DNA of 64,000 bases from assembly GCA_964571255.1 (NCBI GenBank), contig CAZNAA010000001.1, positions 620,666 through 684,665 of the forward strand, written 5' to 3'. Position 1 is the first letter of the stretch; the number at the start of each line of letters is the position of its first letter. Position numbers and translations under genes: made by a program. This document shows positions 9,211 through 57,333 of the stretch, in pieces. The notes below the pieces were generated by a model. That model was not told the DNA's origin. It was given only the letters and a program-made list of their open reading frames with translations, and made no database searches. This DNA comes from an uncultured Gammaproteobacteria bacterium (GTDB lineage Bacteria > Patescibacteriota > Microgenomatia > Levybacterales > UBA12049).

Positions 9211-9251
9211 CCCTTCCCCACTTCTATCCTATTCCAGTATACTAAGGAGGT

Positions 9252-9401
9252 ATGGAAGGATTTTCTGCTCGAGCCTTTAGCTATTTAAAACAAATTTGGC
9301 CAACCATCTATCGAGGCATCAACTCTTTTTTCTACCTTTTCTTGTCATTTATGAAAAAAAGTGTTTCTCTTATGATTAGTCAAATGAAGGGAGGAGTGTA
9401 A
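9252..9401 (+). CDS. Small ORF (49 aa, hydrophobic) translationally coupled (TAATG) to downstream phosphorylase gene
   Basis: AAGGAGG 5 nt upstream of ATG 9252; MEGFSARAFSYLKQIWPTIYRGINSFFYLFLSFMKKSVSLMISQMKGGV; its 3' end supplies GGGAGGAG for next gene. Confidence 0.25.
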   Translation: MEGFSARAFSYLKQIWPTIYRGINSFFYLFLSFMKKSVSLMISQMKGGV

Positions 9402-36200: not shown

Positions 36201-36584
36201 AAATGAAAAGGTGACTAGAAGTAAAATTCCCACAAAGCGGGGAATAAATTTTTGCAAGCTAATATTACTTCCCCTAGTTATGAGCATCAAAAACGCTGTT
36301 GAGAGAATAAAGAGAGCAAAGAATGCATAGACAAGATTTCTGATAATAATCCAGAAAGGAATGAGAGGGTTTCCTTCGTTGCCTAACTGCACCCATTTGT
36401 AGTTTTCCAACGTCCAATCCAAAAACGCTCCAGCTCGTGCAGCTGTTTTTCCAACAAAGGTTACTTCATTATCAACAACCCACGTTCCAACTAAGTCAGC
36501 TGCAAAAATATGAGAGGGAACAAAGAACAAAAGAATACTAAAAATGGTAAGAAAAAGAAGAAAGTTGGGCAGCAAGCGTTTCAT
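33264..36584 (-). CDS. Large membrane protein (1106 aa): signal peptide + ~7-8 TM N-terminal module, poly-Pro linker, ~600-aa Gln/Thr/Ser-rich region of ~6 degenerate tandem repeats, acidic/Lys tail
   Basis: repeat signatures ETIVKDAQKGDQLATQLLPIL / ETITKEAVLGTPLARQLLSLI / EEQVKGNKLATQLLDMI / KAKDKGDQLAGFIYSLL / RNESQRGNQFANVVLQ / QQSVAGNSFATTLNQYI, each preceded by (H/Q)PE(V/L)IT-like segment. Confidence 0.8.
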   Translation of the reverse strand: MKRLLPNFLLFLTIFSILLFFVPSHIFAADLVGTWVVDNEVTFVGKTAARAGAFLDWTLENYKWVQLGNEGNPLIPFWIIIRNLVYAFFALFILSTAFLMLITRGSNISLQKFIPRFVGILLLVTFSFGMVQIIYQLTDITQGFFLRNPDPATAAVRQTISQENLLNIAFKYEDFIGYKRVDSFTDESAFMTLLLTRLTAVTYYAMAAMLIIRKIVLWFFIIISPIFPLLLFYWPIRNTAKIWIGEFFRWVLYGPLFAVLLAGLVSLWQSTIPLFSYQPTGTIVTKTATPVYQTAVNILLGGPRQAIGLASSVNLPETFALYTICLMMLWAVMILPFILLRIFLDYLFSLALNDAPGMKQFLALSNTMLNRQPLSPPPPPTPPSFPTGKALSLPFGRKLQLPFSEPIVQSVTPASQAKSLPQARPLRQTVSVQQQQSTPVIRSTEVSRLNEVLKQIQVAIPTMRDIAMFDTNQIKTTTTTQTSTPVSVQNLQQISNPQLARTPVERQQFERIRETLRNESQRGNQFANVVLQASSAIVSTPVTVSDDRPVLINILNNIATPERVTQITEKTVYEKVKETVSQQSVAGNSFATTLNQYISSKTDQSSSTQAVSTEQALTTIINQLAHPEVITNISDKQNIEVLKETITKEAVLGTPLARQLLSLITQTQSLSPSVMNSLTQQMSQVNKTDQSVVNYITNTYLQQGTTEITENHVATFIQHLAQPDLLPQKEKETAMTIRETIVKDAQKGDQLATQLLPILQSPQNITQDLIKQVTQTIKEVRGSTTLQSVLSTLVQKQTTPVQSTPAPVQSQKVTEIVEKLLKPELITDQKEKESYTVLLTFIKEEQVKGNKLATQLLDMIEGRGEASKETVFNLTQQIRLEAQQQTPFATQLIQTVTPVQPVVTVEKVKEELVKAKDKGDQLAGFIYSLLVKQRQQKPNTSLIKKDVSFPVVNRVQNVSLEDYEAVKKIWKENYENLDEPIRQGQKVPKAQFISQDIEEITEAINLLSSPVNEKRQEGMKKVSGILPFLLIGGFSQTEIVGYLKAKQEAAKDVLEDVDKKEQEEESKLPARRDEKKPEMKVQHMEIKEEIPPSKTEEKAPVSEDRL

Positions 36585-42116: not shown

Positions 42117-43565
42117 ATGAACAAGTATTACATCACTAATGCCATTCCCTATGTCAATGCAGCTCCTCATATTGGACACGCATTAGAATTTATTCAATCA
42201 GATACCATTGCTCGGTTTCACCGCTTACTTGGTGAAGAAGTAACATACCTTTGTGGCTCTGATGAGAATGCTCTTAAAAATGTTCAAGCAGCAGAAAAGA
42301 CTGGAGAAACAGTTCAAGTGTTTGTTGATAAATATGCATCAGTTTTTGAGGAAGCAGTGAAGAAATTAGGAGTTGCGTTTGATATCTTTCAAAAAACGAG
42401 TGATCAAGACAAACACTATCCAGCTAGTCAGAAGTTATGGGAACTTTGTAATGCAAACGGCGACATCTATAAAAAGTCCTACAAAGGGCTCTATTGTGTA
42501 GGATGTGAGACGTTTTATGCTAAAGAGGAACTTAACGAAAATGGCGAGTGCTTTGAACACCCTGGGAAAAAATTAGAAGAAGTAGAGGAGGAAAACTACT
42601 TCTTCCGCCTTTCTAAGTATCAAAAGGAGCTTATTGAACTTATTGAATCAGATACCTACCAAATTGTCCCTTCATTTAGGAAAAACGAAATTCTTTCTTT
42701 TCTGAAAAGTGGACTTGAGGACTTTAGTATTTCTCGAAGTAATGAGAGAGCCAAAAACTGGGGAATACCAGTTCCTGGAGATCCAACTCAGCGAATTTAT
42801 GTCTGGTTTGACGCGTTAAACGTATATCAAAGTGGGATTGGATTTTGCTGGGATGAGGAGCAATATTCAAAACTTTGGCCAGCTGATTTACATGTGATTG
42901 GCAAAGGAATTATTCGATTCCATGCTATCTATTGGCCAGCTATGCTTCTTTCAGCTAAACTCCAGCTTCCCAAAAAACTCTTTGTTCATGAGTACTTTAC
43001 TGTTGACGGGCAAAAAATGTCAAAGACTCTTGGAAATGTGATTGATCCAGTCGAAATGGTTGAAAAGTATGGAGCAGATCCCTTACGGTATTATTGCCTC
43101 TCTAAATTCTCTCCATTTTCTGATGGGGACTTTTCAGAAGAAAGACTCAAAGAAACGTATAACTCTGATTTAGCCAATGGACTAGGAAATCTTGTTGCCA
43201 GAGTTTCACGACTTTGTGAGACAGTACAGCTTGAAAACAAAGGACGAGTTAAGTCTCTTTCTGAATTAACTGAAATTGAAGAGTATCTTTCCTTTTTTGA
43301 AGAATTTAAGTTTAATGAAGTACTTTCTTTTGTCTGGAGAAAAATTACAGAGGTTGATCAATATATAAATCAAGAAAAACCATGGACTTTAGTTGAATCA
43401 GATACGGAGAAGGCAAAAGAGATCCTCACAAGGTGTGTTGAGGAAATTCTCGATATCTCAGTTCTTCTTACTCCTTTTATGCCAGAAACAGCAGGGAAAA
43501 TTCAAAATATATTTGGGAAAGAGGCAATTACTGCAGGAGAATCATTATTCCCTCGTCTTTCGTAA
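42117..43565 (+). CDS. metG: Methionine--tRNA ligase, minimal form (482 aa, no C-terminal tRNA-binding domain)
   Basis: HIGH motif PYVNAAPHIGHA, KMSKS motif KMSKTLGN. Confidence 0.92.
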   Translation: MNKYYITNAIPYVNAAPHIGHALEFIQSDTIARFHRLLGEEVTYLCGSDENALKNVQAAEKTGETVQVFVDKYASVFEEAVKKLGVAFDIFQKTSDQDKHYPASQKLWELCNANGDIYKKSYKGLYCVGCETFYAKEELNENGECFEHPGKKLEEVEEENYFFRLSKYQKELIELIESDTYQIVPSFRKNEILSFLKSGLEDFSISRSNERAKNWGIPVPGDPTQRIYVWFDALNVYQSGIGFCWDEEQYSKLWPADLHVIGKGIIRFHAIYWPAMLLSAKLQLPKKLFVHEYFTVDGQKMSKTLGNVIDPVEMVEKYGADPLRYYCLSKFSPFSDGDFSEERLKETYNSDLANGLGNLVARVSRLCETVQLENKGRVKSLSELTEIEEYLSFFEEFKFNEVLSFVWRKITEVDQYINQEKPWTLVESDTEKAKEILTRCVEEILDISVLLTPFMPETAGKIQNIFGKEAITAGESLFPRLS

Positions 43566-43569
43566 TTAC

Positions 43570-43905
43570 TTATTTAAAAAGCATATTCAAAGCCCAGGAG
43601 ATAAGAGATAAAACAATACTAAATAGGAGTGCCCATAAAAACCCATCAACAGTAAAGCCAGGAACAACATACGTTGCTCCCAAAATAAGTAAGGCGTTAA
43701 TAACCAGAGTAAACAAACCAAAGGTGAGAATAGTAATAGGAAGGGTAAGTAAAACTAAGATTGGCTTAATAACTACATTGGCAATTCCTAAGACTACAGC
43801 GAGAACTAATGCGGTGACAAAAGTGTCAACATGAATTCCAGGAAGAATATAGGCAGCAGTAAGAATAGCTAGCGCATTCAGTAACCAATTAATAAGTATT
43901 CCCAT
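43570..43905 (-). CDS. YvlD/DUF360 (phage holin 4_2 family) 4-TM membrane protein
   Basis: NALAILTAAYILPGIHVDTF...KPILVLLTLPITILTFGLFTLVINALLIL...VPGFTVDGF; likely start MGILINW (43905); longer ORF to 43968 also possible. Confidence 0.65.
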   Translation of the reverse strand: MGILINWLLNALAILTAAYILPGIHVDTFVTALVLAVVLGIANVVIKPILVLLTLPITILTFGLFTLVINALLILGATYVVPGFTVDGFLWALLFSIVLSLISWALNMLFK

Positions 43906-43951
43906 ATCTATATGGTATTCCAAACTAATTTCCCAGGTCAAGAGTGATTCT

Positions 43952-43960
43952 TGGTATAAT
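43952..43960 (+). promoter_or_regulatory. extended -10 TGgTATAAT 7 nt upstream of tatD ATG 43968
   Basis: ttTGgTATAATgcagacaATG. Confidence 0.5.
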
Positions 43961-43967
43961 GCAGACA

Positions 43968-44783
43968 ATGATTGATATTCATTGTCATTTAAATTTTCAC
44001 TCCTATGAAAATGATACTCCAGAAGTAATTAAGAATGCTTTTGCTGCAGGAGTGAGAGCAATTGTTAATGTTGGGACAAAACTGGACTCGAGTAAACAAG
44101 CAGTTGAACTAGCTCACCAATATGACAATTTGTGGGCAATCGTGGGAGTTCATCCTCATCATGCAGACAAAGTCGAGTTAGGTGAAGACTGGATCAAAGA
44201 GCTTGAGATTCTAGCAACAGATGAGAAAGTTATTGGAATTGGAGAGATTGGAATGGATTATTACTCCTATCAATCAAACGGCATTGTGGAATCCTCACTT
44301 CAAAAAGAAGTCTTTGAGGCCCAAATTGAGCTAGCTCATAGACAAAAACTTCCTCTCCAAATTCATCATAGACAAGTAGGACAAGAACTCATTGATATTC
44401 TCCTCCATCACAAAAATCTACTTCTTCCTATTCCTGGGATGTTTCATTGTTTTGCTGGATCAAAAGAGTTTCTCAAACAAGCACTAGACTTAGGATTTTT
44501 TATTGGCTTTGATGGAAACGTGACGTATAAAGGGATTCCCAAAGGAGAAACTGTCTCCCTTCGAGAACTTGCTGAGTACACACCCCTTGATCGAATCGTT
44601 ACCGAAACTGATAGCCCTTATCTTACTCCTGAGCCTTTCCGTGGACAGAGAAATGAGTCAAAACATGTTATACTTGTTGGAGAGTTCCTTGCAGATCTTA
44701 AAGGAGTAACGAATGCGGAAATGAGTGAGATTACAGTGAAGAATGTCTTGACTGCTTTCCCAAAATTGAAACTTACTCTTTAG
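43968..44783 (+). CDS. tatD: TatD-family metal-dependent hydrolase/DNase
   Basis: MIDIHCHLNF..., GEIGMDYY, HHR, FDGNVTYK motifs. Confidence 0.85.
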   Translation: MIDIHCHLNFHSYENDTPEVIKNAFAAGVRAIVNVGTKLDSSKQAVELAHQYDNLWAIVGVHPHHADKVELGEDWIKELEILATDEKVIGIGEIGMDYYSYQSNGIVESSLQKEVFEAQIELAHRQKLPLQIHHRQVGQELIDILLHHKNLLLPIPGMFHCFAGSKEFLKQALDLGFFIGFDGNVTYKGIPKGETVSLRELAEYTPLDRIVTETDSPYLTPEPFRGQRNESKHVILVGEFLADLKGVTNAEMSEITVKNVLTAFPKLKLTL

Positions 44784-44793
44784 GCACTAACGT

Positions 44794-46287
44794 ATGACAA
44801 ATACATTTGATCGTCTTTTTACCCGCTACCCTATTAAAACAAGACGTTTTTTCGAAATTCTCCCAGGATTTATGGCCTGGACTCTCATTTTATTTCCCAT
44901 CTGGGGAGCACTTCTTATCCCAACCTTTCTTGCCTACTTTATTCTTTTCTTTGATATCTATTGGTTGTATAAATCTGCCTCTCTTGTCGTAACCGCCCAC
45001 ATTGCGTCAAAAAAGATTCGGGTAACAGAAAAAATAAATTGGTATGAAAGAGCTCAAAAGTTTGAAGAGAGATCAAAGGTCCATCATATTCTTATTATCC
45101 CAAACTACACCGAGACTGCCGAGAAACTTAAAGTAACTCTTCAAGCTTTAGCAAATCAAAATATGCCTCTTAAATACTTACACATCGTTTTGGCTATGGA
45201 GGAGAGGGAGAAAAATGGAAGAGAAAAAGGAGATATTCTTATTAAGGAATTTAAAGATGTCTTTGGAACTATTATGGCCACCTATCACCCAGACGTTTTG
45301 GGTGAAGTGAAAGGCAAGTCTTCAAATGAGGCATACGGAGGACGGGAAGCATATAAGTATCTTATTGAAAATGGTCCATTAGATTTGGATTACACCACAG
45401 TAACAGCCATTGATGCTGACTCTATTTTTGATAAAGAATATTTTGGCAATCTTACCTATCTTTTCCTTGAAGATAAATTACGGTATCAAAAATTCTGGCA
45501 ATCAGCTATTGTTCACTACACTAATATCTGGCAAGTTCCCGCCCCTAATAGAATTATTTCTTTCTTTGGAGGATTGTGGAGAACCTCCCTTCTTGTCAGA
45601 CAAGACAAACTACTAACGCACGCAACCTACTCTCTTTCTTTCAGACTCCTTCATGAAATAGGCTACTGGGATGTTGATGTTATTCCTGAAGATTATCGAA
45701 TCTTTTTCAAAGCATTTTATGCCAAACAGGGGCAAATTTGGGTTGAGCCAATTTTTCTCAAAACCTCCGTTGATGTTGCCCAGTCCCCAACGTACTGGGG
45801 AAGTCTACAGAATAAATATAATCAGGAGAGGCGCTGGTCATGGGGAGTATCTGATCAACCTCTTTTTATTAAATGGTGGTTCACCGTTCCTGGAGTTCCT
45901 TTTTACAGAAAGACAACCCTTCTTTTACAAGTATTAATGGATCACGTGTTATGGCCTGCTAATTGGTTTATTATCACCATTGCAGCAAACGTTATTCCCT
46001 TTGTTAATCCAGTCTACTCTCGAACGGCACTTGGCTACCGGCTTCCACAACTTGCCGGATCTATTTTAACTATTGGGCTTATTTCAATTGTTGCACTCAT
46101 TTATATAGATTTTAAAAATAAACCAGAGCATATCAAACTTCCTTGGTACCGAAAACTCTTTTTCCCGTTTGAGTTTATTTTAATGCCTCTTATTGGATTT
46201 TTCCTTTCTGCACTCCCTGCTCTTATCTCACACACTCAGCTCATGTTTGGCAAGAGAATGGAGTATAAAGTAACTGAGAAAGTATAA
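44794..46287 (+). CDS. Membrane-embedded processive family-2 glycosyltransferase (cellulose/chitin/hyaluronan-synthase-like)
   Basis: N-terminal TMs, DxD (TAIDADSIF), Q(x2)RW motif (QERRWSWG), C-terminal TM bundle. Confidence 0.8.
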   Translation: MTNTFDRLFTRYPIKTRRFFEILPGFMAWTLILFPIWGALLIPTFLAYFILFFDIYWLYKSASLVVTAHIASKKIRVTEKINWYERAQKFEERSKVHHILIIPNYTETAEKLKVTLQALANQNMPLKYLHIVLAMEEREKNGREKGDILIKEFKDVFGTIMATYHPDVLGEVKGKSSNEAYGGREAYKYLIENGPLDLDYTTVTAIDADSIFDKEYFGNLTYLFLEDKLRYQKFWQSAIVHYTNIWQVPAPNRIISFFGGLWRTSLLVRQDKLLTHATYSLSFRLLHEIGYWDVDVIPEDYRIFFKAFYAKQGQIWVEPIFLKTSVDVAQSPTYWGSLQNKYNQERRWSWGVSDQPLFIKWWFTVPGVPFYRKTTLLLQVLMDHVLWPANWFIITIAANVIPFVNPVYSRTALGYRLPQLAGSILTIGLISIVALIYIDFKNKPEHIKLPWYRKLFFPFEFILMPLIGFFLSALPALISHTQLMFGKRMEYKVTEKV

Positions 46288-46289
46288 GT

Positions 46290-46643
46290 ATGAAAGAGCT
46301 GTTGCAAGATATTAAAGCTGATGGATTAGTTTGGAGAGGAACCATTGCTGCAACAATCCTTCTTTTCATTTGTATTATCTATACTGGAATTGCCTACTAT
46401 ATTTTCCCACCCGTCATTCCTCTTTTTCACCAACTTCCTTGGGGAGAACAACGACTGGCTGAGAAAATAGGAATTGTACTTCCTGTTGGCTTTACTTTTT
46501 GTACGGTCTATATCAATGTGATTCTCGCTACGATGATTCATAAGACACTTCCTTTAGTTGGAAGAATTCTGATTATCACTAGTCTTTTATTAACGATTCT
46601 TTTAAGTATCTTTTTAATTAAAACGACTCTTTTAGTTATATGA
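46290..46643 (+). CDS. Small membrane protein (117 aa)
   Basis: hydrophobic ORF; 4-nt overlap with next gene. Confidence 0.45.
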   Translation: MKELLQDIKADGLVWRGTIAATILLFICIIYTGIAYYIFPPVIPLFHQLPWGEQRLAEKIGIVLPVGFTFCTVYINVILATMIHKTLPLVGRILIITSLLLTILLSIFLIKTTLLVI

Positions 46644-47689
46644 TCGAAATACTTTATTTGCCATTTCTTTTTTCAGCTCTTTTAACAGCATTTCTTACTT
46701 ACCTCCTTATTCCTCTTATTAAAAAAGCAGGACTCGTGGATGATCCAAAAATTCATATTCACCCAAAAGTGATTCATACAGGGAGTGTTCCCCGAGGGGG
46801 AGGAATACCACTTTTCTTGGGAGTTTTCATCTCAGGGTTACTTTTTCTTCCTATTAATCAACAAACGATTATTCTATTTGTGGCCTCATTTCTTTGCTTA
46901 ATCGTTGGAACGATTGATGATAAATATAATGGTCTTGGGAAAGATCTCTCTCCTGTTATTAGACTTGGAGTGAATATTTTAGCTGCAAGTATCGTTGTTT
47001 TTGGAGGAATCTCCATTTCATTTCTCACTAACCCTTTTGGAGGGATTATTCATTTGGATATTCCCCTTCTTTCTTTTCTCCCTATTACTGCAGGACAAAT
47101 TATCTCCATTGTCTGGATTATTTGGGTTATGAATATGATGAACTGGAGTAAGGGGGTTGATCAAATGCCAGGACTTGTTGCTATTGCTGCATTTGTCATA
47201 GGGCTTTTAGCAATAAAACTAAGTGGAGATATGCAGTTTTTAGATACCCCTCTCTCTTTTATCATTGCAGGAGCAGCACTGGGCTTTCTTCCTTTTAATC
47301 TCAATCCTGCCCGGATTTTTCCTGGATACGGAGCGACCGCACTTTATTTGCTTCTAGCTGCAGTTTCCATTCTTTCCAGTGCAAAATTAGCAACAGCTAT
47401 TTTAGTTATGGGAGTTCCAACTATTGATGCAGCCTTTACGATTATTAGACGAATTGCAAACAAAAAATCCCCCATGTATGGAGATCGGAAACATTTGTAT
47501 CATTTGCTTTTGGATTTTGGTTATTCGAAGAGACAAATTGCGTTGTTCTATTGGGCTTTATCTGCTATATTGGGCGTTGTGGCCCTCACTCTTGAAAGTA
47601 AGAGTAAGTTATTTGCTATAGTAATGGTAACAGTTATTACGGTTGGGGGATTAATATTTTTACACAGCTTTAATGAAAAAGATTCTTAG
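46640..47689 (+). CDS. Polyprenyl-phosphate sugar-1-phosphate transferase of the MraY/WecA family
   Basis: GTIDDKYNGLG and MNMMNWSKGVDQMPG motifs, ~10 TM. Confidence 0.8.
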   Translation: MIEILYLPFLFSALLTAFLTYLLIPLIKKAGLVDDPKIHIHPKVIHTGSVPRGGGIPLFLGVFISGLLFLPINQQTIILFVASFLCLIVGTIDDKYNGLGKDLSPVIRLGVNILAASIVVFGGISISFLTNPFGGIIHLDIPLLSFLPITAGQIISIVWIIWVMNMMNWSKGVDQMPGLVAIAAFVIGLLAIKLSGDMQFLDTPLSFIIAGAALGFLPFNLNPARIFPGYGATALYLLLAAVSILSSAKLATAILVMGVPTIDAAFTIIRRIANKKSPMYGDRKHLYHLLLDFGYSKRQIALFYWALSAILGVVALTLESKSKLFAIVMVTVITVGGLIFLHSFNEKDS

Positions 47690-48644
47690 TTATTTCAAAC
47701 TCTGCAGACCTCGGCAATGGATTAAAAACGTTGCCATTTTCGCATCCATCACCTTTAACGGAGGCTTATTTGAACCAGTATCACTTCTTCATGTATTTTT
47801 TGGCTTTTTAGTATTTTGTGGTCTATCCAGTGCCACGTATATTATTAATGATCTTTTTGATATTCAAAAAGACAAATTGCACCCATTCAAAAGAAATCGT
47901 CCTCTTGCCAAAGGAACTGTATCTGTTCCCGAGGCCATAGTTCTTGCCATTCTTCTTGGAGGAGGATCACTGATTGGAAGCATTGTCGTGCAACCTGGAG
48001 ATAGCTTTAGTGGCCTCCCATCATTCTTCATTGTAGCGGTAACATACTTGGTACTACAGTTCTCTTATTCCATGCTTCTCAAACACGTAACGGTTTTGGA
48101 TATTTTAAGTATTGCTGCTGGATATATCTTGCGAGTCTATGCAGGAGAAGTCCTTTTCCCAGGGTCACACATTCCTGTCTGGTTATTTTTGACAACGATT
48201 TCTTTGTCTCTTTTCTTAGCAGTTGGAAAGAGACGATCTGAGCTGACTCTTGTCTCAACCCAATCGGCTGCAGCGATTGCTTCCATTAGAGAAACGCTTT
48301 CTCATTACTCAGAGAGGCTCCTTGACGTGTATGCTTCAATTTTTGCTACCTCCACCTTTATTTCTTATGCCCTTTTTACCTTTGTGGAGAATAGCAAGTC
48401 TCTAACCATTACTAATGAATTACTTCTCCCAGATTACCTTCCCATGTCACTGCAAAAAAAGTGGCTCATGATTACAATCATCCCAGTAGTGTATGGTTTG
48501 ATGAGATATCTTCAAGACATTTATGAAAAACATGAAGGAGAGAGTCCTGAAAGAGTACTATTGTCTGACAAGCAGTTACTTGCAACAGTTATTACGTGGG
48601 TATTGATGGTAATTGGGATTATTTATGTTATTCAGGGAGGGTGA
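47673..48644 (+). CDS. UbiA-family prenyltransferase, decaprenyl-phosphate phosphoribosyltransferase (DPPRS)-like
   Basis: YIINDLFDIQKDKLHPFKRNRPLAKG (NDxxDxxxD + KR.RP.A.G signature), polytopic; overlaps upstream gene by 17 nt. Confidence 0.75.
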   Translation: MKKILSYFKLCRPRQWIKNVAIFASITFNGGLFEPVSLLHVFFGFLVFCGLSSATYIINDLFDIQKDKLHPFKRNRPLAKGTVSVPEAIVLAILLGGGSLIGSIVVQPGDSFSGLPSFFIVAVTYLVLQFSYSMLLKHVTVLDILSIAAGYILRVYAGEVLFPGSHIPVWLFLTTISLSLFLAVGKRRSELTLVSTQSAAAIASIRETLSHYSERLLDVYASIFATSTFISYALFTFVENSKSLTITNELLLPDYLPMSLQKKWLMITIIPVVYGLMRYLQDIYEKHEGESPERVLLSDKQLLATVITWVLMVIGIIYVIQGG

Positions 48645-48853
48645 GAAGATGATTCGCATTCCTTTTGGGTCACCATCGGGAACCACCTGCTTCTCAGATT
48701 CAAGAATAGGTTGATATATTGAGCTAATCGTATCGTTCTTAACCAATATTTATTTCAAACATAGTTAGCCTCAAATGTACTGACACCCTAACAGGATTCG
48801 AACTCTTCTTCTTGAATAACATACTACTTTATGGAATACTTCAGTTACATATG

Positions 48854-49945
48854 GAAGATACTCAACAACCAATACCCATACAGCCAGTAATACAAACTCC
48901 CCCGGATTCACGGAAACCAAATACGCTAGTGATGGGTTTAGGAGCAATTGTTCTTATTGGTTTAGGATTGCTCGGGGGATATTTTCTTTTTGCAAACAAA
49001 AATCTGACTAACTCTCAAATTCCTTTACAAAGGATAGCCGCTTCACCAACTATAACTCAACAACCAAGTCAGACAGAGAATCAAACAGCAAATTGGCAGA
49101 CATATAGAAATAATAAATACTTCTATAGCATAAAGTATCCAAATCAGTTAAAAACTGAGGATAGAATGGCTGGTCAAACTAGTTATGATCCAAATACACT
49201 TCAAATATTTAGTAGTGACACAAACATAGTATTTACAGTACAAGTACTGACTTCTGCCAATACTTCAGACTTGAAAACATATGTAGAAACTATTAAAAAT
49301 CAAAATAGTACTAATGCAAACGTAAAGATTGGAACAATTACGCAAACGACTATTGATAACCAAAATGCGTTTGAAATTCAAGTTACGGGAAACGGCAGAG
49401 ATGGCGGCTGGCAAGGAACAGATTCACAGCCTCATACTTATATGTATGTCCAAAATAAAAACCTAAAATACCAATTAGATTATGCAAATAATGACACTTT
49501 CGCTCCAATTATATTAGCAAGTTTCAAATTTCTGAATAATACTTCTCCAACAACCTCGTCTCAAATAAATGGAGCAAGCTTAGTAAACATTAAATATACT
49601 TTGCCAGCTGGATGGAAAGCTACCTTAAATGCGGATTCTCTTTTACTCGCGCCGAGTACAGGATATTTATCTATAAAAGTAGATGACTATAATGGAACGA
49701 CTGGCAGACGAGAATATTACTGCCAAGTAAGTAAGATATGTGTTGAAGGAACTACAAAGTTTACTGAAATGACTATTGGAAATATTTCAGGGTATATGGC
49801 ATCAGGATTAGATAACAGCGGTGGTGGTTCAGAATACTTTGGAGCAAAAGGAAATAAATTCTATGTTATCAGTAGTTATAATCCACCTTTACCAAATAAT
49901 TTTGAGAATTCTTATAAGCAAGTATTAAACTCTTTAGTATTCTAA
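48854..49945 (+). CDS. Hypothetical membrane-anchored secreted protein (Asn/Thr-rich)
   Basis: ORF; TM GLGAIVLIGLGLLGGYFLF; ORF-track start 48812 uses TTG; ATG 48854 preferred. Confidence 0.5.
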   Translation, partial: EDTQQPIPIQPVIQTPPDSRKPNTLVMGLGAIVLIGLGLLGGYFLFANKNLTNSQIPLQRIAASPTITQQPSQTENQTANWQTYRNNKYFYSIKYPNQLKTEDRMAGQTSYDPNTLQIFSSDTNIVFTVQVLTSANTSDLKTYVETIKNQNSTNANVKIGTITQTTIDNQNAFEIQVTGNGRDGGWQGTDSQPHTYMYVQNKNLKYQLDYANNDTFAPIILASFKFLNNTSPTTSSQINGASLVNIKYTLPAGWKATLNADSLLLAPSTGYLSIKVDDYNGTTGRREYYCQVSKICVEGTTKFTEMTIGNISGYMASGLDNSGGGSEYFGAKGNKFYVISSYNPPLPNNFENSYKQVLNSLVF

Positions 49946-50046
49946 AATTTACTCTTCATTTTGTTCATCATATACTAGTATCAATTGTTCCCAAAAAGTC
50001 AGAGATCGTTCGAACAGACTCCCCGTCGGGTCACTAATCTACGATT

Positions 50047-50790
50047 TTACTCCTCAAGTAACCGTTTTAAATACGAGGAGGGATTATTGAGAAAAGTCTT
50101 TGTTAGTTGGTATACTTCTGTTTCTTCATACGCAACTTCTTCAATTACTTCTCCGTTAAATGCAAGTATTTGAGCCTCAGGATATGCAAGAAGAATAGGT
50201 GAGTGAGTTGCAATAATAAACTGACTATTCGGATTATCTTTAATCATATTATGAATTAATACCATTAAAGAAAGTTGCCGCTGAGGAGATAATGCAGCTT
50301 CTGGTTCATCCATTAAATAAAATCCTCCTCTTGAAAATCTTTCTGTAAATAGGATTAAGAAAGACTGACCATGTGATTTCTTATGTAATGATTCTCCTCC
50401 ATAGGCGTTATACATTCTTTTATCCTCTTTTCCTATTTCATCAACGTATGTGGCTAAATTAAAAAATGTTTCTGCACGAAAAAAGTATCCACCTAAAAGT
50501 TTATTTGACCAACTTAACCTTAGATACTCTGATAATGAGTTCGTATCTTCGTCAGATGTATTTGTTGCAATACTTCTACTCCCTCCTTCTTTTCCAAATC
50601 CATAGTTTCCAGCAATCGCTTCAAGAAAAGTTGATTTGCCAGATCCATTTTCACCGATAAAGAAAGTAACTTTTTGAGTTATATCTAGAGCAGTAAAGTT
50701 TTTTACAATATCAATATTAAAGGGATATTTATTCCAATCAGGAACTTGATCTTTTAAGAAAGTAATTTGACGAAGATATGGTTCATTCAT
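50047..50790 (-). CDS. Stand-alone ABC/RecF-like ATPase (AAA_21-type, 247 aa)
   Basis: Walker A FFIGENGSGKST, ABC signature-like region, Walker B FYLMDEPEAALS, H-loop IIATHSP. Confidence 0.75.
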   Translation of the reverse strand: MNEPYLRQITFLKDQVPDWNKYPFNIDIVKNFTALDITQKVTFFIGENGSGKSTFLEAIAGNYGFGKEGGSRSIATNTSDEDTNSLSEYLRLSWSNKLLGGYFFRAETFFNLATYVDEIGKEDKRMYNAYGGESLHKKSHGQSFLILFTERFSRGGFYLMDEPEAALSPQRQLSLMVLIHNMIKDNPNSQFIIATHSPILLAYPEAQILAFNGEVIEEVAYEETEVYQLTKTFLNNPSSYLKRLLEE

Positions 50791-50793
50791 TCT

Positions 50794-51642
50794 TTATCCT
50801 TCTTTCACAAACTCTGCACTAACCCATCCTTCTTTTCCATCTTTCAACTTTATCCTGTACCATCCATCAATAGTTTGAAGAGGAACATACGTTTCTCCAG
50901 GAAGCACTCTTCCTACCTCATTTGCAGTTGATGAGTTAGAATCTCGAACTCTTAGAAATCCAGTTGGAGTTTGAAGAATAGTAATTTGAGAGGCTGGAGT
51001 TGCTGTAGGAGTTGGAGTCAATGAAACTTGTGGAGCAGGAGTGGGAGTAGGAAGAGGATCTTGTCCAATGCCAAGTGTTCCAATCACTGTTACTTTGTAC
51101 CCTGCATAAGTTCTAATGGGAACTGTTTTTTCTCTATAACCTGACTTTTTTAACTTTACTTTATGATCTGATGCACTGAGGTTTTTCATAAGAAGGGGAG
51201 TAACCCCAATAAGATTGGAGTCCATATATACTTCGGCTTTATCTGGAAAAGAAACGACTAATACTTGTACTTCGTTTTTCTCAGGAACTGCAGAGACAGA
51301 AATGACACTCCCACTTCCTTTTCCTTCGGGTCCAAAGACTCTATCAACTGCCGTAAGAGTATTATTGGTTAAAGTAATTTTTTCTTTGTATTCAGGAAAA
51401 GCAGTATCCAGTGGAACTAACTTAATCGTGTAATCACCTGAGGGGAAAACATTTTGTCCATCTGTTCGAGGATAGGGAGTTTGTCCTAGATACTTATCAT
51501 TTAAATAGATTTTACTTTCTGGATTTGATGTTACTTGAATGGCTCCCTTCCCATTTATGCGTCTAACAATAAAAAGAGAGATAAAAATAAGAAAGAGGAA
51601 AAAGAGAGTAAAGACAACTAATAGAAATATGATTTTTTTCAT
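50794..51642 (-). CDS. Membrane-anchored protein with two PEGA-like domains, TPTP linker and C-terminal SH3b-like domain
   Basis: IYLNDKYLGQTPY / VYMDSNLIGVTPL PEGA signatures; GWYRIKLKDGKEGWVSAEFV. Confidence 0.55.
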   Translation of the reverse strand: MKKIIFLLVVFTLFFLFLIFISLFIVRRINGKGAIQVTSNPESKIYLNDKYLGQTPYPRTDGQNVFPSGDYTIKLVPLDTAFPEYKEKITLTNNTLTAVDRVFGPEGKGSGSVISVSAVPEKNEVQVLVVSFPDKAEVYMDSNLIGVTPLLMKNLSASDHKVKLKKSGYREKTVPIRTYAGYKVTVIGTLGIGQDPLPTPTPAPQVSLTPTPTATPASQITILQTPTGFLRVRDSNSSTANEVGRVLPGETYVPLQTIDGWYRIKLKDGKEGWVSAEFVKEG

Positions 51643-51668: not shown

Positions 51669-53813
51669 CTAAACTACAGAGATTACTTCAACTGTTCCAC
51701 CACAAACGCGTGTAATAAGCTCTGTTACTTCAGTAAGAACGGATTGCACTCTCTCTTCTGTAATTCCTTCTCCTCCATCGACATTAATATACAGATTTTT
51801 CGTTTCCTCAGTTACTGCAGTTCGGACACTATCTCTATAGTTTAGATCTAAATTAAATGGTCCTACTTGATCGGTGTATATCATCTCTCCTTTTTTAATA
51901 GAAGTTTCCTCCGCTTCTCCAAGCAAATGAATTTTCTCTTCTCCTTTTGCAAGAGTTAGTTTCGTTGGGAATTCTAATTTTTCCATATCAAATACACCAA
52001 TTGATACTTTGTGTTTCAAAACCACAACGTTTGCTGCATCTACTGCTGTGTTGACGTTGTATACCTCTTTTCCACTGGCAAGACGTCTCAGGAGTGCTTC
52101 AGGACTAGGACGGCGTGAGTGATAGTCTACTCCCATGGTTTTATACATTGCTCTATAAGACTGAACTTCTGGAATTTCATTAATTTGTTCATTCGTTAAT
52201 CCAGCAAGGGATGTGACTACTTCTCCTTTTTCTTTTTCTAACTCTTCTGAAAGTTTTGTAACAGAGACTCCTTTAATAACCGCTACTCCCACCTTTATTG
52301 CTGGGAATTTTTGTAATACTGTTGAATCAATAGTGAGTTGCTCATTTGACACACTTTGTATAGAGGGAGCACTGTCTGATTTTAAGGTTGGGAACATCAC
52401 TACTTCTTTAATTCCCCATTTATTGGTGAAAAACATTGTGAGTCTATCAATTCCTACCCCAATTCCTCCAGTTGGTGGCATGCCATGCTCCATGGCAAGA
52501 AGGAAGTCTTCATCAAGTTGTTGTGCTTCTTCTTTGTCTTTTCGAGCAGCAACAACGTCTTTGGTAAATCTTTCTCTTTGAATAACAGGATCTGTCAACT
52601 CAGACCATCCATCAAAAATTTCTTTGCCTCCAACGTATCCTTCAAATCTCTCTACCCATCCCGGTTTACTCCTGTGAGGTTTTGAGAGAGGACTCACGTC
52701 TTCTGGATAATCAATAATCCAAGTTGGTTCACTCAGTTGTTTTGGAATTAAATGATCAAAGATCATAAAGATAAGTTGTCCTCTCGTTTCTCCTCCTAAA
52801 AGTTCCATATGAGGACAATGAAGTTTGGCAAATTCAAGAAGAGATGCTTCTGTCTCATCATCAACATCTAGTCCCAATTTTTCTTTAAGAATCTCAGTCA
52901 TAGAGATTCTTTTCCACTCTCCTCCAATATCAATAGTTTTATCTTCAATTTGGAGTGTGGTGTTTCCATTGAGTTTTTGGGCGATATGTTTGCAAAGTCC
53001 TTCTGCTACATCCATCACCCTGTTATAGTCTGCATACGCCTCATACCACTCAATCATGGTAAATTCTGGAAAGTGAGTTTGATCAATGCCTTCATTTCGA
53101 AAATCTTTACAGATCTCATATACTCTCTCATATCCACCAACCATCAAACGTTTCAGATATAACTCATCAGCAATTCGCAAATAGACGTCTTTATTTAACG
53201 CATTTAAATGAGTTTTAAAAGGTTTTGCATTAGCTCCACCATAAAGTGGTTGCAAAGTAGGGGTTTCGACTTCCCAGAATCCTAAATTGTCTAAATATTC
53301 ACGTACTGCGCGAACAAGTTTGGTTCGAGTATTAAATCTCTCCCGAACTTCTGGGTTAAGAAGTAAATCTAAATATCTTTGGCGATATCTCGTCTCAACG
53401 TCTTTTACCCCGTACCACTCACTAGGAAGCGGACGAAGGACTTTGGTTAAGAGAGTATAACTGGTTGGAGCAATAGAAACTTCCCCTGCAGTTGTCATAA
53501 CAATTTCTCCCTCAACGCCAACAAAATCTCCCAGATCCAAAAGTTTTAAATGATCATAGAGCTCTCCAAGGAGTTCTTTTTTAAGAAAAAGTTGGATTTT
53601 CCCTGTTTCATCTTTCAAATCAGCAAAAGAGATATTTCCATGAGAGCGAAAAGACGTGAGTCTTCCTGCAGTTTTCACTGTTTTTCCTTCCATCTCACGA
53701 GCTTGCCCAATCGTTTGTTCTTTAGGATAGGACGCAGGGTATGGATTCCAGCCTAAAGCTCTAATTCGCTCTAGTTTTTCAATCATTTGTTGACGCAGGT
53801 TTGAGTCTTCCAT
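51669..53813 (-). CDS. lysS: Lysine--tRNA ligase (class II) fused to ~215-aa C-terminal B3/B4-like tRNA-binding/editing-type domain
   Basis: OB anticodon domain; class II motifs (FRNEGIDQTHFPEFTMIEWY; GGIGVGIDRLTMFF); C-terminal NTAVDAANVVVLKHKVSIGVFDMEKL matches B3/4 N.VD..N...L..G.P.H.FD signature. Confidence 0.85.
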   Translation of the reverse strand: MEDSNLRQQMIEKLERIRALGWNPYPASYPKEQTIGQAREMEGKTVKTAGRLTSFRSHGNISFADLKDETGKIQLFLKKELLGELYDHLKLLDLGDFVGVEGEIVMTTAGEVSIAPTSYTLLTKVLRPLPSEWYGVKDVETRYRQRYLDLLLNPEVRERFNTRTKLVRAVREYLDNLGFWEVETPTLQPLYGGANAKPFKTHLNALNKDVYLRIADELYLKRLMVGGYERVYEICKDFRNEGIDQTHFPEFTMIEWYEAYADYNRVMDVAEGLCKHIAQKLNGNTTLQIEDKTIDIGGEWKRISMTEILKEKLGLDVDDETEASLLEFAKLHCPHMELLGGETRGQLIFMIFDHLIPKQLSEPTWIIDYPEDVSPLSKPHRSKPGWVERFEGYVGGKEIFDGWSELTDPVIQRERFTKDVVAARKDKEEAQQLDEDFLLAMEHGMPPTGGIGVGIDRLTMFFTNKWGIKEVVMFPTLKSDSAPSIQSVSNEQLTIDSTVLQKFPAIKVGVAVIKGVSVTKLSEELEKEKGEVVTSLAGLTNEQINEIPEVQSYRAMYKTMGVDYHSRRPSPEALLRRLASGKEVYNVNTAVDAANVVVLKHKVSIGVFDMEKLEFPTKLTLAKGEEKIHLLGEAEETSIKKGEMIYTDQVGPFNLDLNYRDSVRTAVTEETKNLYINVDGGEGITEERVQSVLTEVTELITRVCGGTVEVISVV

Positions 53814-55819: not shown

Positions 55820-56926
55820 TCATACCATGATTTCTTCTTTTGTCAAGGATACTCCCAACAGATACCAGAAGGCCGTTAGTGTCACAACACTTACTGGATT
55901 AAAGCACATACACGTTATTATTCCTAAAAGCATGAGAAAATATGCAGTCTGTTTTTTTTCTATAAACTGTTTTATGGCTTGATACAACAGAGCAAGAATA
56001 GATATGACACCAATTACTCCTCCTTGCACAAACCAATCAAGCAAAAAGTGATGACTACTATCAAGATTAATATATTTCATCTCGATAACACTTCTGGCAT
56101 TTGTCTCAATCACTTGTTGAATATTTCCAATCCCTTGTCCAATCAGTGGAGAGTCTATTCCAGAAGTGAGTGCTACTTTCCAAATTTCTGCTCTATTTTC
56201 ATAGATGCTTTTTGTTTCAAAAAAAGGAAATGTGTGACTTACTACTAATAGACAAAGGGTAATAATAATTGCTTTTGAAATACTTAATTTACTCATGCAA
56301 AGAAGAAATATTCCTTGAAGTACAAAAGCTAATAACCCAGATCTGGATCCAGTAAGAAGAATGATTATCAATGAGAGGAGTACTACTCCGACTTTTTTCC
56401 AAAGATTTTTTTCTTTGATAGAGATAATCCAAGGCCATAAAAAAATAACAAAAGCAGAAAGAGCATTTGGTTCACCGAGTGTTCCAATACTCCTTTCATC
56501 TATTCTTCCAGAAATAAAAAGACTAGCAATGAATTGAACTAGTAAAAGAATCAGTAATACATTTGATGAAAAACTGGGGAGTTTATTTTTCTGAGCTAGA
56601 AAAAACAAGCCAAGAAATAAAACTAATAAAAATACTCCTTGCAGTCGAAATGCAGTTCCTAACAGAACACTTGGACTTGGAAAGAAAAGAAAACTACAAA
56701 GAATAATAAAGAGTATTCCCCCAAGAGCAAGTCTTGTAAGTTTTGTTTGAGAGGAAAATAAATCCCTTACTTTTTCTTTTGGTAATGAAAGACTAAAAAG
56801 AGCAATACTTACTAAAAGAAGTATTTCACTAACTAATACTTTTGGTATTTCAAATGGAGTAATGCCAAGTGGAAAAATAACATAGGGAGTGAGAAAAAGA
56901 AGAGTGAAAAGAAGTAGTGAAATCAC
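55820..56926 (-). CDS. O-antigen ligase/polymerase-like (Wzy_C) polytopic membrane protein
   Basis: ~10 TM, periplasmic-loop motif LLTGSRSGLLAF. Confidence 0.65.
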   Translation of the reverse strand: MISLLLFTLLFLTPYVIFPLGITPFEIPKVLVSEILLLVSIALFSLSLPKEKVRDLFSSQTKLTRLALGGILFIILCSFLFFPSPSVLLGTAFRLQGVFLLVLFLGLFFLAQKNKLPSFSSNVLLILLLVQFIASLFISGRIDERSIGTLGEPNALSAFVIFLWPWIISIKEKNLWKKVGVVLLSLIIILLTGSRSGLLAFVLQGIFLLCMSKLSISKAIIITLCLLVVSHTFPFFETKSIYENRAEIWKVALTSGIDSPLIGQGIGNIQQVIETNARSVIEMKYINLDSSHHFLLDWFVQGGVIGVISILALLYQAIKQFIEKKQTAYFLMLLGIITCMCFNPVSVVTLTAFWYLLGVSLTKEEIMV

Positions 56927-56934
56927 AAGATGGA

Positions 56935-57333
56935 TTATAGATTAAATAATAATCCTTGGAAATTTACAGTTCTTTCTTGTCCAGCAACAACTCGTACTAC
57001 TTGAAGTGGAGGATTAAAAAATGAACTACTACTACTCGTTGCTTCAACAAAGTAAAGACCAGGAACTACATTTGCCATATACTCTCCATTACTATCAGTC
57101 ATAACTGTTGTCTTTTGATTTTGGTTTAAAACATTTTTTAGAGTAATCGTTACGTTTGCTCCTGGAAGAATTGATGAGAGGGGACGTAAGACATTACGAA
57201 GAGTTACTTTTCCCTTCACTGAGAAAAATGTAACAGGAGCGGTAACAACTTCTGCTGCAGAGACTGGGATGGTTGAGAAAACAAGGAAGAGGGAAAAAAG
57301 AAAAAGAGTTCCTACTAAAATTCTTTTTATCAT
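56935..57333 (-). CDS. Secreted carboxypeptidase-regulatory-like (transthyretin-fold) domain protein
   Basis: signal peptide, TDSNGEY motif. Confidence 0.55.
   Translation of the reverse strand: MIKRILVGTLFLFSLFLVFSTIPVSAAEVVTAPVTFFSVKGKVTLRNVLRPLSSILPGANVTITLKNVLNQNQKTTVMTDSNGEYMANVVPGLYFVEATSSSSSFFNPPLQVVRVVAGQERTVNFQGLLFNL

Follow-up and report, generated by a model that had tools for sequence, protein, structure and literature searches.

A gene block fixed in Levybacteria, possibly for a lipid-linked pentofuranose glycan, and the loss of its GT-C gene in one clade

The stretch of DNA analysed here (64 kb in length, hereafter the window) carries on its plus strand a run of five intact ORFs, encoding TatD, a GT2, a membrane protein of 117 aa, a PNPT-like protein and a UbiA-like protein that resembles DPPRS. 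The question raised by this locus is whether these genes serve a common lipid-linked glycan pathway and, if so, which pentose it would use.

Organization and conservation of the block

The genes are separated by 10 nt (tatD-GT2) and 2 nt (GT2-117-aa gene), while the 117-aa gene overlaps the PNPT-like gene by an ATGA (46640-46643) and the latter overlaps the UbiA-like gene by 17 nt (47673-47689). Both overlaps given in the sequence-only reading are genuine, and so is the tight packing. The five-gene set and the gene identities were also confirmed by intact ORFs, profile matches and, for the GT2, motifs and fold. Each of the five proteins has hundreds to thousands of homologues and sequences identical to all of them are called genes in public assemblies; therefore, they are not chance ORFs.

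The order metRS-tatD-GT2-GT-C-117aa-PNPT-UbiA was found in 157/157 informative Levyibacteriota loci from genomes and metagenomes (77 of 80 genome loci, the other three ending at contig edges, and 80/80 metagenome loci), and consecutive block genes overlap by 4-20 nt in sister genomes. The more distant lineage L170 retains GT2...GT-C-small protein-PNPT despite a 2.4-kb insertion, and the small-protein gene lies immediately upstream of the PNPT gene in every case, including short contigs of distant members. The five window genes are the local copy of a block fixed in Levybacteria (CPR/Patescibacteria). It should be considered that the regional synteny detected by tblastn also takes in the unrelated housekeeping genes hrcA, metRS and lysRS and that the packed run of sister genomes starts at metRS. 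Therefore, in genomes as streamlined as these, gene order and co-transcription are weak evidence of a common pathway.

The first gene, tatD (43968..44783, plus strand), encodes a TatD/YchF-family metal-dependent hydrolase/nuclease of 271 aa (PF01026, E 8e-76; TIGR00010, 255.5 bits with a cut-off of 206). Its ORF is also open from a GTG at 43944, with public gene calls starting at the ATG at 43968. An extended −10-like element, TGgTATAAT (43952..43960, plus strand), was read directly in the sequence; a consensus promoter scan did not list it, the −35 hexamer being absent. Since this element ends 7 nt from the ATG and no Shine-Dalgarno sequence precedes the start codon, it is a candidate promoter of a leaderless tatD transcript. 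Two sister genomes, L084 and L167, have the same TATAAT-7 nt-ATG spacing, and the leaderless operon proposed from the sequence is thus plausible. The counting of tatD among the pathway genes was not borne out: it overlaps metRS by 4 nt (ATGA) in L085 and L168, and metG and tatD form an ancestral pair in other bacteria, so that tatD is probably a co-transcribed passenger of an ancestral metRS-tatD pair and not a glycan enzyme. In the window clade a holin-like gene is inserted between metRS and tatD, and with this insertion tatD would have gained a −10 element of its own, positioned for a leaderless transcript.

The UbiA-type enzyme and its membrane-protein neighbours

The last gene (47673..48644, plus strand) encodes a UbiA-superfamily protein of 323 aa (PF01040, E 6e-21), predicted to be a PRPP:polyprenyl-phosphate 5-phosphoribosyltransferase (DPPRS/PPPRS-like). 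Its score against NF008978, the NCBIfam DPPRS model, was 207.8 bits (cut-off 207). DPPRS models matched it with an E of 2e-61, whereas other UbiA subfamilies reached at best 2e-13, about 48 orders of magnitude weaker; the heme O synthase model gave 5e-10 and UbiA proper 4e-6. The best PDB match was M. tuberculosis Rv3806c (8j8j), aligned over the full length with an E of 2.4e-34, while the next prenyltransferase gave 8e-6. When the published PRPP/Mg ligands of Rv3806c (PMC10994848) were mapped through this alignment, 12/13 were retained, with the conserved pairs (Rv3806c/window) R22/R12, K28/K18, Y70/Y56, N73/N59, D77/D63, K87/K73, R90/R76, Q135/Q129, Y138/Y132, K143/K137 and Y157/Y151; the sole altered ligand is K208, which is E207 in the window protein. 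Among near-invariant family positions, 105/106 are retained.

An ordinary prenyltransferase of the menaquinone, ubiquinone or heme O type, unconnected to sugars, would also fall in PF01040, but this identity is hardly credible. No heme O synthase, UbiA or MenA-type model did better than 5e-10, compared with 2e-61 for DPPRS, and the ribose/5-phosphate-binding residues kept here are not conserved in true UbiA enzymes, the phosphoribose-binding positions of Rv3806c not being common to ordinary members of the superfamily (PMC10994848). The DPPRS scores and ligand conservation effectively refute it. Judged by these comparisons, the window enzyme groups with DPPRS, apart from the prenyltransferases of quinone and heme O synthesis, as the sequence-only reading had suggested. 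Its view that a polyprenyl-P-pentose donor would be notable in this lineage needs revision, as more than 400 species genomes carry a DPPRS-like gene and the NCBI name in Levybacteria is already DPPRS.

The GT2 (497 aa; 44794..46287, plus strand) is an integral-membrane protein with a predicted cellulose/hyaluronan-synthase-like fold. Pfam gave no match even at E<=10; therefore, it is recognisable by motifs and predicted fold only. The family-invariant motifs D207xD209, E299-D300, Q344ERRW348 and the C-terminal Y491KVTEK496, similar to the FxVTxK gating loop, are present, and 146/148 near-invariant positions are retained. The predicted fold matches HAS, BcsA and PcManGT. The D, DxD, ED and QxxRW motifs and this fold support the call of a synthase-like GT2. 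BcsA and class I hyaluronan synthase are membrane-integrated GT2 synthases and PcManGT is a minimal synthase-fold mannosyltransferase; unlike these three, the window protein had no significant Pfam GT2 model and, compared with BcsA, it stops right after the gating-loop-like motif, with fewer membrane helices.

The PNPT-like protein (349 aa; 46640..47689, plus strand) is a divergent homologue of the polyprenyl-phosphate N-acetylhexosamine-1-phosphate transferases, the WecA/MraY superfamily (PF00953, E 4e-21). The family consensus retains DD and HLHH, but K replaces the first Asp of NxxNxxDGxDG and FPGYGAT stands at the site of the MraY motif FMGDTGS, two canonical Asp positions being missing. 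Since an Asp missing from this family coordinates Mg in MraY and GPT, the activity is uncertain, and the protein is presumed to be a putative lipid-primer enzyme. The superfamily assignment made from the sequence was therefore right, while the WecA label was too specific (94 bits against TIGR02380, cut-off 326; two Asp missing). In the window clade 5/85 near-invariant positions are changed, including a one-residue deletion in KGVDGQ and HLHH to HLYH.

The 117-aa protein (46290..46643, plus strand) is predicted to have three membrane helices, the first of which is followed by a conserved loop motif, LPPxIPxFxxLPWGxxRL. Neither Pfam nor NCBIfam matched it. At 50% identity its family falls into 384 clusters, almost all of about 117 aa, with weak DUF1648 matches in 5/38 members (best E 0.002) and none to GtrA, SMR or MATE; the AF2 model is of low confidence (pLDDT 60). 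It may serve as an accessory or flippase subunit.

Loss of the GT-C gene and surroundings of the block

Between GT2 and the small-protein gene, 157 related loci carry a PMT_2-type GT-C gene of about 485-517 aa (PF13231, E about 1e-10); in its product the invariant motif WYGDEG follows helix 1. No tblastn match to the GT-C was found in the whole window, where the GT2 stop and the next start are just 2 nt apart (junction 46287..46290). The gene list of the sequence-only reading had missed this canonical member, which is deleted here. The same junction recurs in the independent assemblies L001, L084 and L167; GT-C is absent from the window, L084 and L167 and present in their sisters L085 and L168. 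The window and two sister lineages share one clean deletion of the gene. These three diverged lineages (69-90% amino-acid identity) have kept every ORF intact, and within the clade all five genes show pN of 0.07-0.24 against a saturated pS of 0.68-0.81. The remaining genes are under strong purifying selection.

An O-antigen-ligase-like (Wzy_C) gene does exist at 55820-56926 (PF04932, E 8e-16). None of the 83 related loci has it, nor does the nearest relative at the corresponding position; therefore, nothing ties this genome-specific insertion to the cluster, and its proposed part in a lipid-linked glycan pathway is unsupported. The convergent neighbour directly after ubiA in 78/80 relatives is a gene for a membrane-anchored protein with PEGA and cell-wall-binding-type SH3 domains (50794..51642, minus strand), assigned by tblastn synteny and NCBIfam SH3 wall-binding matches; the L005 orthologue matches PEGA and SH3_3. 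In the window it is set apart from ubiA by two inserted genes. Across 80 relatives, the 10 kb around the block show no recurrent DprE1/E2-type (FAD-oxidase, SDR) or phosphatase family, nor was a recognised flippase found near it. In the window there is no DprE1/E2-like FAD oxidase or SDR, the only FAD_binding_4 protein being MurB. The partners expected of an arabinan pathway were thus not found. Since no epimerase family recurs near the block, the lipid-linked pentose is more likely to be ribofuranose than arabinose.

A proposed pathway and its alternatives

The locus is similar to known three-component polyprenyl-phosphate-pentofuranose systems and to mycobacterial arabinogalactan assembly. 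The decaprenyl-phospho-arabinose branch of M. tuberculosis (arabinogalactan/LAM) comprises WecA, GlfT2, Rv3806c, Rv3807c, DprE1/E2, Rv3789 and the Emb/Aft GT-Cs. As there, a UbiA-fold phosphoribosyltransferase with nearly all PRPP/Mg ligands adjoins, in the canonical block, a PNPT-family primer enzyme, a GT2 and a GT-C; the block echoes the ubiA-glfT2 neighbourhood of Rv3806c-Rv3808c. However, the window enzyme is only about 30% identical to Rv3806c; no PAP2 phosphatase, DprE1/E2, Glf or GtrA-like Rv3789 was detected near the block; GlfT2 is peripheral, whereas the GT2 here is an integral-membrane enzyme of synthase fold; and the GT-C, missing in the window, is PMT_2-type and matches no solved GT-C structure in sequence.

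In Citrobacter youngae O1/O2, ORF15 (PPPRS-PRP), ORF14 (MATE flippase) and ORF12 (GT136 GT-C) likewise place a PRPP-dependent polyprenyl-phosphoribose synthase beside a GT-C for extracytoplasmic pentose addition (Kelly et al., 2024, PMC11127046). In such systems ribofuranose is the default without an epimerase. The Levybacteria protein has the UbiA domain only, without a fused HAD phosphatase; its block has no MATE gene, places it among a GT2 and a PNPT-like gene and not within an O-antigen locus, and has a GT-C (lacking in the window) from a different family. The row GT2, GT-C, small membrane protein is also like three-component Gtr glucosylation (the small flippase GtrA, the GT2 GtrB, which makes polyprenyl-P-glucose, and the GT-C GtrC), and a WecA-primed, synthase-dependent pathway is known from the O-antigen made by WecA and WbbF (PMC2841628).

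Taken together, a fixed block for a lipid-linked pentofuranose glycan, with GT-C lost in the window clade, is the reading that we favour by somewhat more than even chances. At the cytoplasmic face, the UbiA enzyme, whose homology and ligands are clear and whose activity we infer from them, would transfer 5-phosphoribose from PRPP to polyprenyl phosphate, giving polyprenyl-P-ribofuranose-5-P. A phosphatase would strip the 5-phosphate and the lipid-linked pentose would be flipped outward, perhaps by the 117-aa protein, the only candidate at the locus. In the canonical block, GT-C would then take the donor outside the membrane and add pentofuranose to a glycan, as in the established PPPRS, flippase and GT-C systems (PMC11127046). 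Gene order and shared polyprenyl-phosphate chemistry suggest, most economically, the product of the adjacent GT2 as acceptor, built on or next to a lipid primer that the PNPT-like enzyme would provide. The lack of the proposed donor consumer in the 64-kb window counts against this proposal.

The same loss, with the other genes kept, would suit neighbours without a common pathway, co-transcribed through CPR compactness, in which the GT2 product would be a glycan by itself, the PNPT-like protein would prime another wall polymer and UbiA/GT-C would form a separate modification module. The packed run with metRS and tatD and the synteny reaching hrcA and lysRS fit this possibility, to which we give about one chance in a few; however, the products of five consecutive genes are all integral-membrane enzymes of polyprenyl-phosphate-linked glycan chemistry or partners in it, neither their order nor their overlaps vary among 157 loci, the order is partly kept across the L170 insertion, and the small protein-PNPT pair is constant even in distant members. 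An actinobacterial-type arabinan pathway, in which DprE1/DprE2 homologues encoded elsewhere epimerise polyprenyl-P-ribose to polyprenyl-P-arabinofuranose as donor for an arabinan-like polymer and the O-antigen-ligase-like gene participates, appears improbable. It would agree with the DPPRS-like enzyme, with canonical-block analogues of four arabinogalactan steps (PNPT primer, GT2, DPPRS, GT-C) and with epimerase genes needing no linkage to the locus, but not with the lack of FAD-oxidase/SDR families within 10 kb of the block in 80 genomes and in the window, or with the 0/83 loci with Wzy_C, and known ribofuranose systems function without epimerases (PMC11127046). Decay after the GT-C loss, leaving functionless UbiA and small-protein genes on the way to pseudogenisation, could explain the missing consumer and the altered PNPT-like positions; it is very unlikely given intact ORFs in three diverged lineages, pN far under saturated pS, and a UbiA enzyme that keeps 105/106 near-invariant positions and all mapped catalytic ligands.

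Returning to the favoured pentofuranose block, since the remaining genes are under purifying selection, the lipid-linked donor is presumably still made in the window clade, where its consumer would presumably be a transferase encoded elsewhere, or the donor would serve another purpose.

The gene cluster and its predicted phosphoribosyltransferase

Five intact ORFs follow each other on the + strand between positions 43968 and 48644 of the window: tatD (43968-44783; PF01026, E 8e-76, and above the TIGR00010 cut-off) and the genes of a 497-aa membrane protein (GT2; 44794-46287), a 117-aa membrane protein (46290-46643), a 349-aa Glycos_transf_4 protein (PNPT-like; 46640-47689) and a 323-aa UbiA protein (47673-48644). 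The third and fourth genes overlap by ATGA at 46640-46643 and the last two by 17 nt (47673-47689), while the remaining spacers are 10 nt (tatD/GT2) and 2 nt (GT2/117-aa gene). This arrangement is exactly that described in the sequence-only reading, and identical protein sequences with identical starts had already been called as genes in public assemblies. The G+C fraction of the window is about 0.38, and its composition and gene content are typical of a CPR/Patescibacteria genome. A consensus scan returned 14 terminator-like hairpins in the region 43400-50200, whereas shuffling predicts 5.0 ± 2.4; almost all fell within coding sequence and none in the ubiA-psbP intergenic region, and the excess may be a compositional effect.

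The UbiA protein was matched by the NCBIfam models of decaprenyl-phosphate phosphoribosyltransferase (DPPRS) at E 2e-61, whereas families other than DPPRS scored it at E 2e-13 or worse, and the models of heme O synthase, 4-hydroxybenzoate prenyltransferase and further UbiA subfamilies at E 5e-10 or worse. It passed NF008978 marginally (207.8 bits, cut-off 207) and stayed below the cut-offs of two further DPPRS models (207.5 vs. 234 and 151.9 vs. 474 bits). Its best PDB match, over the full length, was M. tuberculosis Rv3806c (E 2.4e-34), followed by an archaeal prenyltransferase (E 8e-6). When the phmmer alignment to Rv3806c was mapped onto the published ligand list (PMC10994848), 12 of the 13 residues binding Mg, pyrophosphate, ribose and 5-phosphate of PRPP were found to be kept, namely R12, K18, Y56, N59, D63, D67, K73, R76, Q129, Y132, K137 and Y151 (R22, K28, Y70, N73, D77, D81, K87, R90, Q135, Y138, K143 and Y157 in Rv3806c). 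The sole altered ligand was Rv3806c K208, aligned to E207, and the conserved ones were invariant in 24 relatives. The phosphoribose-binding positions of Rv3806c are not common to ordinary UbiA enzymes (PMC10994848). The protein is thus a predicted DPPRS-type enzyme, as had been proposed; it does not group with the menaquinone or heme O prenyltransferases, the alternative raised at the time, because the DPPRS models and the Rv3806c match outscore the other UbiA subfamilies and the PRPP ligands are largely kept. Levybacteria homologues of this protein are already named DPPRS in public annotation.

The GT2, PNPT-like and 117-aa proteins

Pfam gave no match to the 497-aa protein even at E<=10. It has more than 3900 homologues (65-83% identity), which hardly vary in length and some of which show a weak PF13632 match. 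The protein carries the D, DxD, (T)ED and QxxRW motifs of processive membrane GT2 synthases of the BcsA/HAS/chitin synthase type, and D207-A-D209, P298-E299-D300 and Q344-E-R-R-W348 were invariant in 32 sequences. Its AlphaFold model (pLDDT 68.6 on average and above 85 in the GT-A core) was matched by Foldseek over the whole length to Chlorella virus hyaluronan synthase and BcsA (E 1e-9 to 1e-7). The C-terminal Y491-K-V-T-E-K496 is also invariant and looks more like FxVTxK, the gating-loop motif in cellulose synthases, than like WGT(R/K)G, the motif in hyaluronan/chitin synthases (PMC10592267). The motifs and the modelled fold support a membrane GT2 with a probable synthase-like fold, in agreement with the earlier call of a synthase-type enzyme; its processivity is putative.

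The 349-aa protein matched PF00953 (E 4e-21, 76 bits, cut-off 27) and scored far below the cut-offs of TIGR02380 (WecA; 94 vs. 326 bits) and TIGR00445 (MraY; 40 vs. 192 bits). Consequently, the WecA/MraY-family transferase of the sequence-only reading stands at the level of the superfamily and falls at that of either equivalog. The family consensus, built from 76 relatives, keeps DD and HLHH, but Lys replaces the first Asp of NxxNxxDGxDG, and FPGYGAT is found in place of the MraY FMGDTGS, whose Asp faces a gap when the family is aligned to MraY 5jnq. At the position taken by the Mg-binding Asp in MraY, WecA and GPT, the family lacks an acidic residue. By its profile and motifs the protein is a divergent member of the WecA/MraY (PNPT) superfamily.

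Three helices are predicted in the 117-aa protein, together with the loop motif LPPxIPxFxxLPWGxxRL. A word-indexed search gave 5 matches, whereas an exhaustive profile search revealed 384 clusters at 50% identity, with a length almost fixed at 117 aa, a near-invariant P...PWG..RL loop and the gene always directly upstream of the PNPT-like gene. In Pfam, only a weak DUF1648 similarity was seen, in 5 of 38 relatives. An AF2 model from six sequences reached pLDDT 60 and pTM 0.33, values too low for the model to be relied on or used in fold comparison. A role as a GtrA/SMR flippase was discarded for want of sequence support, as Pfam profiles gave no GtrA or SMR match in the protein or the 38 relatives.

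The block in related Levybacteria and the lost GT-C gene

Scanning one genome per species with a UbiA alignment revealed a relative in 412 species, the best 80 of which were all Levyibacteriota-type Patescibacteria. When their loci were searched with the window proteins (tblastn), one invariant order emerged: (hrcA)-metRS-tatD-GT2-[~1.45 kb]-117aa-PNPT-UbiA, with a PEGA+SH3 gene in convergent orientation behind UbiA. A multi-pass membrane protein, about 485-517 aa long, is encoded in the 1.45-kb interval. It contains PF13231 (PMT_2), and its first helix is followed by the invariant motif WYGDEG; because of both features, it is assigned, at sequence level, as a GT-C glycosyltransferase; its profile gave no matches among PDB sequences or in NCBIfam. 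The GT-C gene was present in 77 of the 80 genome loci, the other three ending at contig ends. With GT-C as query against metagenome contigs, the same context was seen in all 80 loci among the matches listed, and a more distant lineage (L170) kept the order GT2...GT-C-small protein-PNPT despite a 2.4-kb insertion. It must be noted that unrelated housekeeping genes fall within the regional synteny too, so that the argument from linkage is weaker.

The window departs from this order. In 157 related loci GT-C sits precisely where the window has the junction 46287/46290; at this junction only 2 nt separate the GT2 stop from the start of the 117-aa gene, and tblastn gave no GT-C match anywhere in the 64 kb. 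Assemblies made independently for this organism (L001-L003) show the same junction, and so do its nearest relative, L084, and a further sister lineage, L167 (GT2 82 and 83% identical, respectively), whereas the gene is present in L085 and L168, which come next in relatedness (71-72% identical). The simplest reading is that the gene was cleanly deleted once, before this small clade diversified. Relocation of the gene was considered as well; the matches listed in a metagenome scan with the GT-C alignment were loci in the canonical context at <=46% identity, and none came from the sample of the sister lineage.

The genes left after the loss remained under constraint. In the comparison of the three genomes without GT-C, pN ranged from 0.07 to 0.24, with pS saturated at 0.68-0.81, and the window retains 105 of 106 UbiA and 146 of 148 GT2 positions conserved in at least 97% of the relatives. 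The PNPT-like protein of the window's clade carries five changes at positions conserved to at least 97%, common to L084; in the GT-C-less lineages HLHH became HLYH and one residue was lost in KGVDGQ. The constraint retained on UbiA and the small protein would imply that a replacement transferase is encoded elsewhere or that the lipid-linked ribose has a different use.

With respect to the start of the run, metRS and tatD overlap by 4 nt in L085 and L168, and the genes are packed through UbiA with overlaps of 4-20 nt; therefore, the run began ancestrally at metRS. The pairing of metG with tatD is common in other bacteria, and we treat tatD as a passenger of the block. TatD was also considered as the missing 5-phosphatase and rejected, adjacency being the sole argument for it and the metRS-tatD coupling explaining this adjacency better. 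In the window, metRS and tatD are separated by a Phage_holin_4_2-like gene (43570-43905, minus strand; PF04020, E 4e-34), an insertion confined to the small clade with L084 and L167, while metRS and tatD abut or overlap in other Levybacteria. Direct reading of the sequence showed that TGgTATAAT ends 7 nt before the tatD ATG and that there is no Shine-Dalgarno sequence; the consensus promoter scan, which reports only promoters with a −35 hexamer, did not flag this −10 element. L084 and L167 keep the TATAAT-7 nt-ATG spacing within a different flanking sequence, and this supports the idea of a putative leaderless tatD start in the clade.

The O-antigen-ligase-like gene at 55820-56926 (Wzy_C, PF04932), which had been linked to the cluster, was rejected as a pathway member for lack of conserved co-occurrence. 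Together with the adjoining gene of a 132-aa signal-peptide protein, it is inserted next to murB (55820-57333, minus strand); neither gene has a homologue in 83 related loci, and both are missing at the corresponding place in L084.

Other features of the surroundings were also recorded. Two genes lie between ubiA and the PEGA-SH3 gene (48812-50790). One encodes a secreted, PsbP_2-like protein of 377 aa, the other a lone AAA_15/AAA_21 ATPase of 247 aa, for which PADLOC gave AriA, PtuA and GajA-type ATPases as the best matches (E 3e-19); without homologues in the 83 related loci, the pair is specific to this genome and may have arrived as a small insertion of mobile or defence type. The LysRS at 51669-53813 (minus strand, 714 aa) is of class II with a C-terminal B3_4 domain, while the sister loci carry a class I enzyme (PF01921) at the syntenic position (L085, 16259-17803; L168, 16282-18549, the latter also with B3_4), which looks like non-orthologous displacement at a fixed locus. 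Two adjacent ATP-citrate-lyase-type genes (Citrate_bind + ATP-grasp and CoA-ligase + citrate synthase C-terminal domain; 58348-61277, minus strand) are conserved next to murB in related Levybacteria, an unexpected metabolism for a reduced CPR genome. A 1106-aa protein (33264-36584, minus strand) combines an N-terminal TrbL/VirB6-like membrane domain (weak, E 1e-4) with a long repetitive Q/T-rich C-terminal part, and the small neighbouring gene shows weak T4SS_pilin matches in relatives. Finally, sortase, a thymidine/AMP-phosphorylase-family protein and an MltG (YceG) homologue are encoded in a row at 8488-11638; sortase and MltG are envelope-related and lie 30 kb from the cluster.

Proposed pathway and its meaning

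The best-supported step would be the transfer by the UbiA enzyme of 5-phosphoribose from PRPP to polyprenyl phosphate. By analogy (PMC11127046), the lipid-phosphoribose would then be dephosphorylated, flipped and used by GT-C outside the membrane, and the acceptor, to judge from the adjoining genes, may be a lipid-primed glycan produced by the GT2 and PNPT-like proteins. The steps beyond the UbiA assignment we infer from gene order and family chemistry, and the window locus has no enzyme for the last one. Neither the DprE1/E2-like epimerase nor the phosphatase partners for which a search had been suggested were encountered: no DprE1 (FAD oxidase), DprE2 (SDR reductase) or 5-phosphate phosphatase was found in the 64-kb window, and when the ORFs lying up to 10 kb from the block were clustered in 80 genomes, no family of phosphatases, epimerases or known flippases recurred. 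Given that no epimerase genes are nearby, ribofuranose is the default prediction for the pentose.

The working principle of the locus is shared with known polyprenyl-phosphate-pentofuranose donor systems. Its overall logic resembles mycobacterial arabinogalactan assembly, and the proposed lipid-primed mechanism the WecA-plus-synthase O-antigen route (PMC2841628). In contrast to the known pentofuranose systems, the locus has no HAD or PAP2 phosphatase and no MATE or GtrA-type flippase (no MATE gene and no SMR/GtrA-like flippase was seen at the cluster); the block has a PMT_2-type GT-C instead of GT136 or Emb/Aft, and an integral-membrane synthase-fold GT2 and an atypical PNPT are included. Compared with the three-component system (PPPRS, flippase and GT-C), the window lacks both GT-C and a recognised flippase. 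We rate its locus as an uncharacterised, naturally truncated version of a known type of donor system. A literature search returned no paper linking DPPRS, arabinan or glycosyltransferase clusters to Patescibacteria/Levybacteria.

A bolder proposal, which taken as a whole we consider unlikely, combines a CPR-specific secondary envelope polymer paralleling mycobacterial arabinogalactan with a second, GT-C-independent role of polyprenyl-phosphoribose. In the polymer part, the divergent PNPT may prime a polyprenyl lipid, the minimal cellulose-synthase-fold GT2 may extend and perhaps export the chain, and the PMT_2-type GT-C may add ribofuranose from polyprenyl-P-ribose. The second role is invoked because the clade lost GT-C yet strongly constrains the phosphoribosyltransferase and the 117-aa protein; polyprenyl-phosphoribose may serve, for instance, as a primer, a membrane anchor or a substrate of the atypical PNPT-like enzyme.

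The value of the truncated donor system lies in CPR envelope biology and glycoenzymology, and it brings no categorical surprise. For enzymology, the block offers a compact 323-aa PPPRS, a compact 497-aa synthase-fold GT2 and an atypical PNPT for study. The biochemistry of CPR/Patescibacteria envelopes is almost unstudied, and given that minimal genomes keep this six-gene membrane glycan block invariant across hundreds of Levybacteria species, it is likely of importance for the surface or for host attachment. It would bring to a candidate phylum the polyprenyl-phosphate-pentofuranose chemistry known so far from mycobacterial arabinan, Pseudomonas pilin and enterobacterial O antigens, and the natural GT-C deletion in the window's clade provides a ready comparison for the purpose of the lipid-linked ribose.
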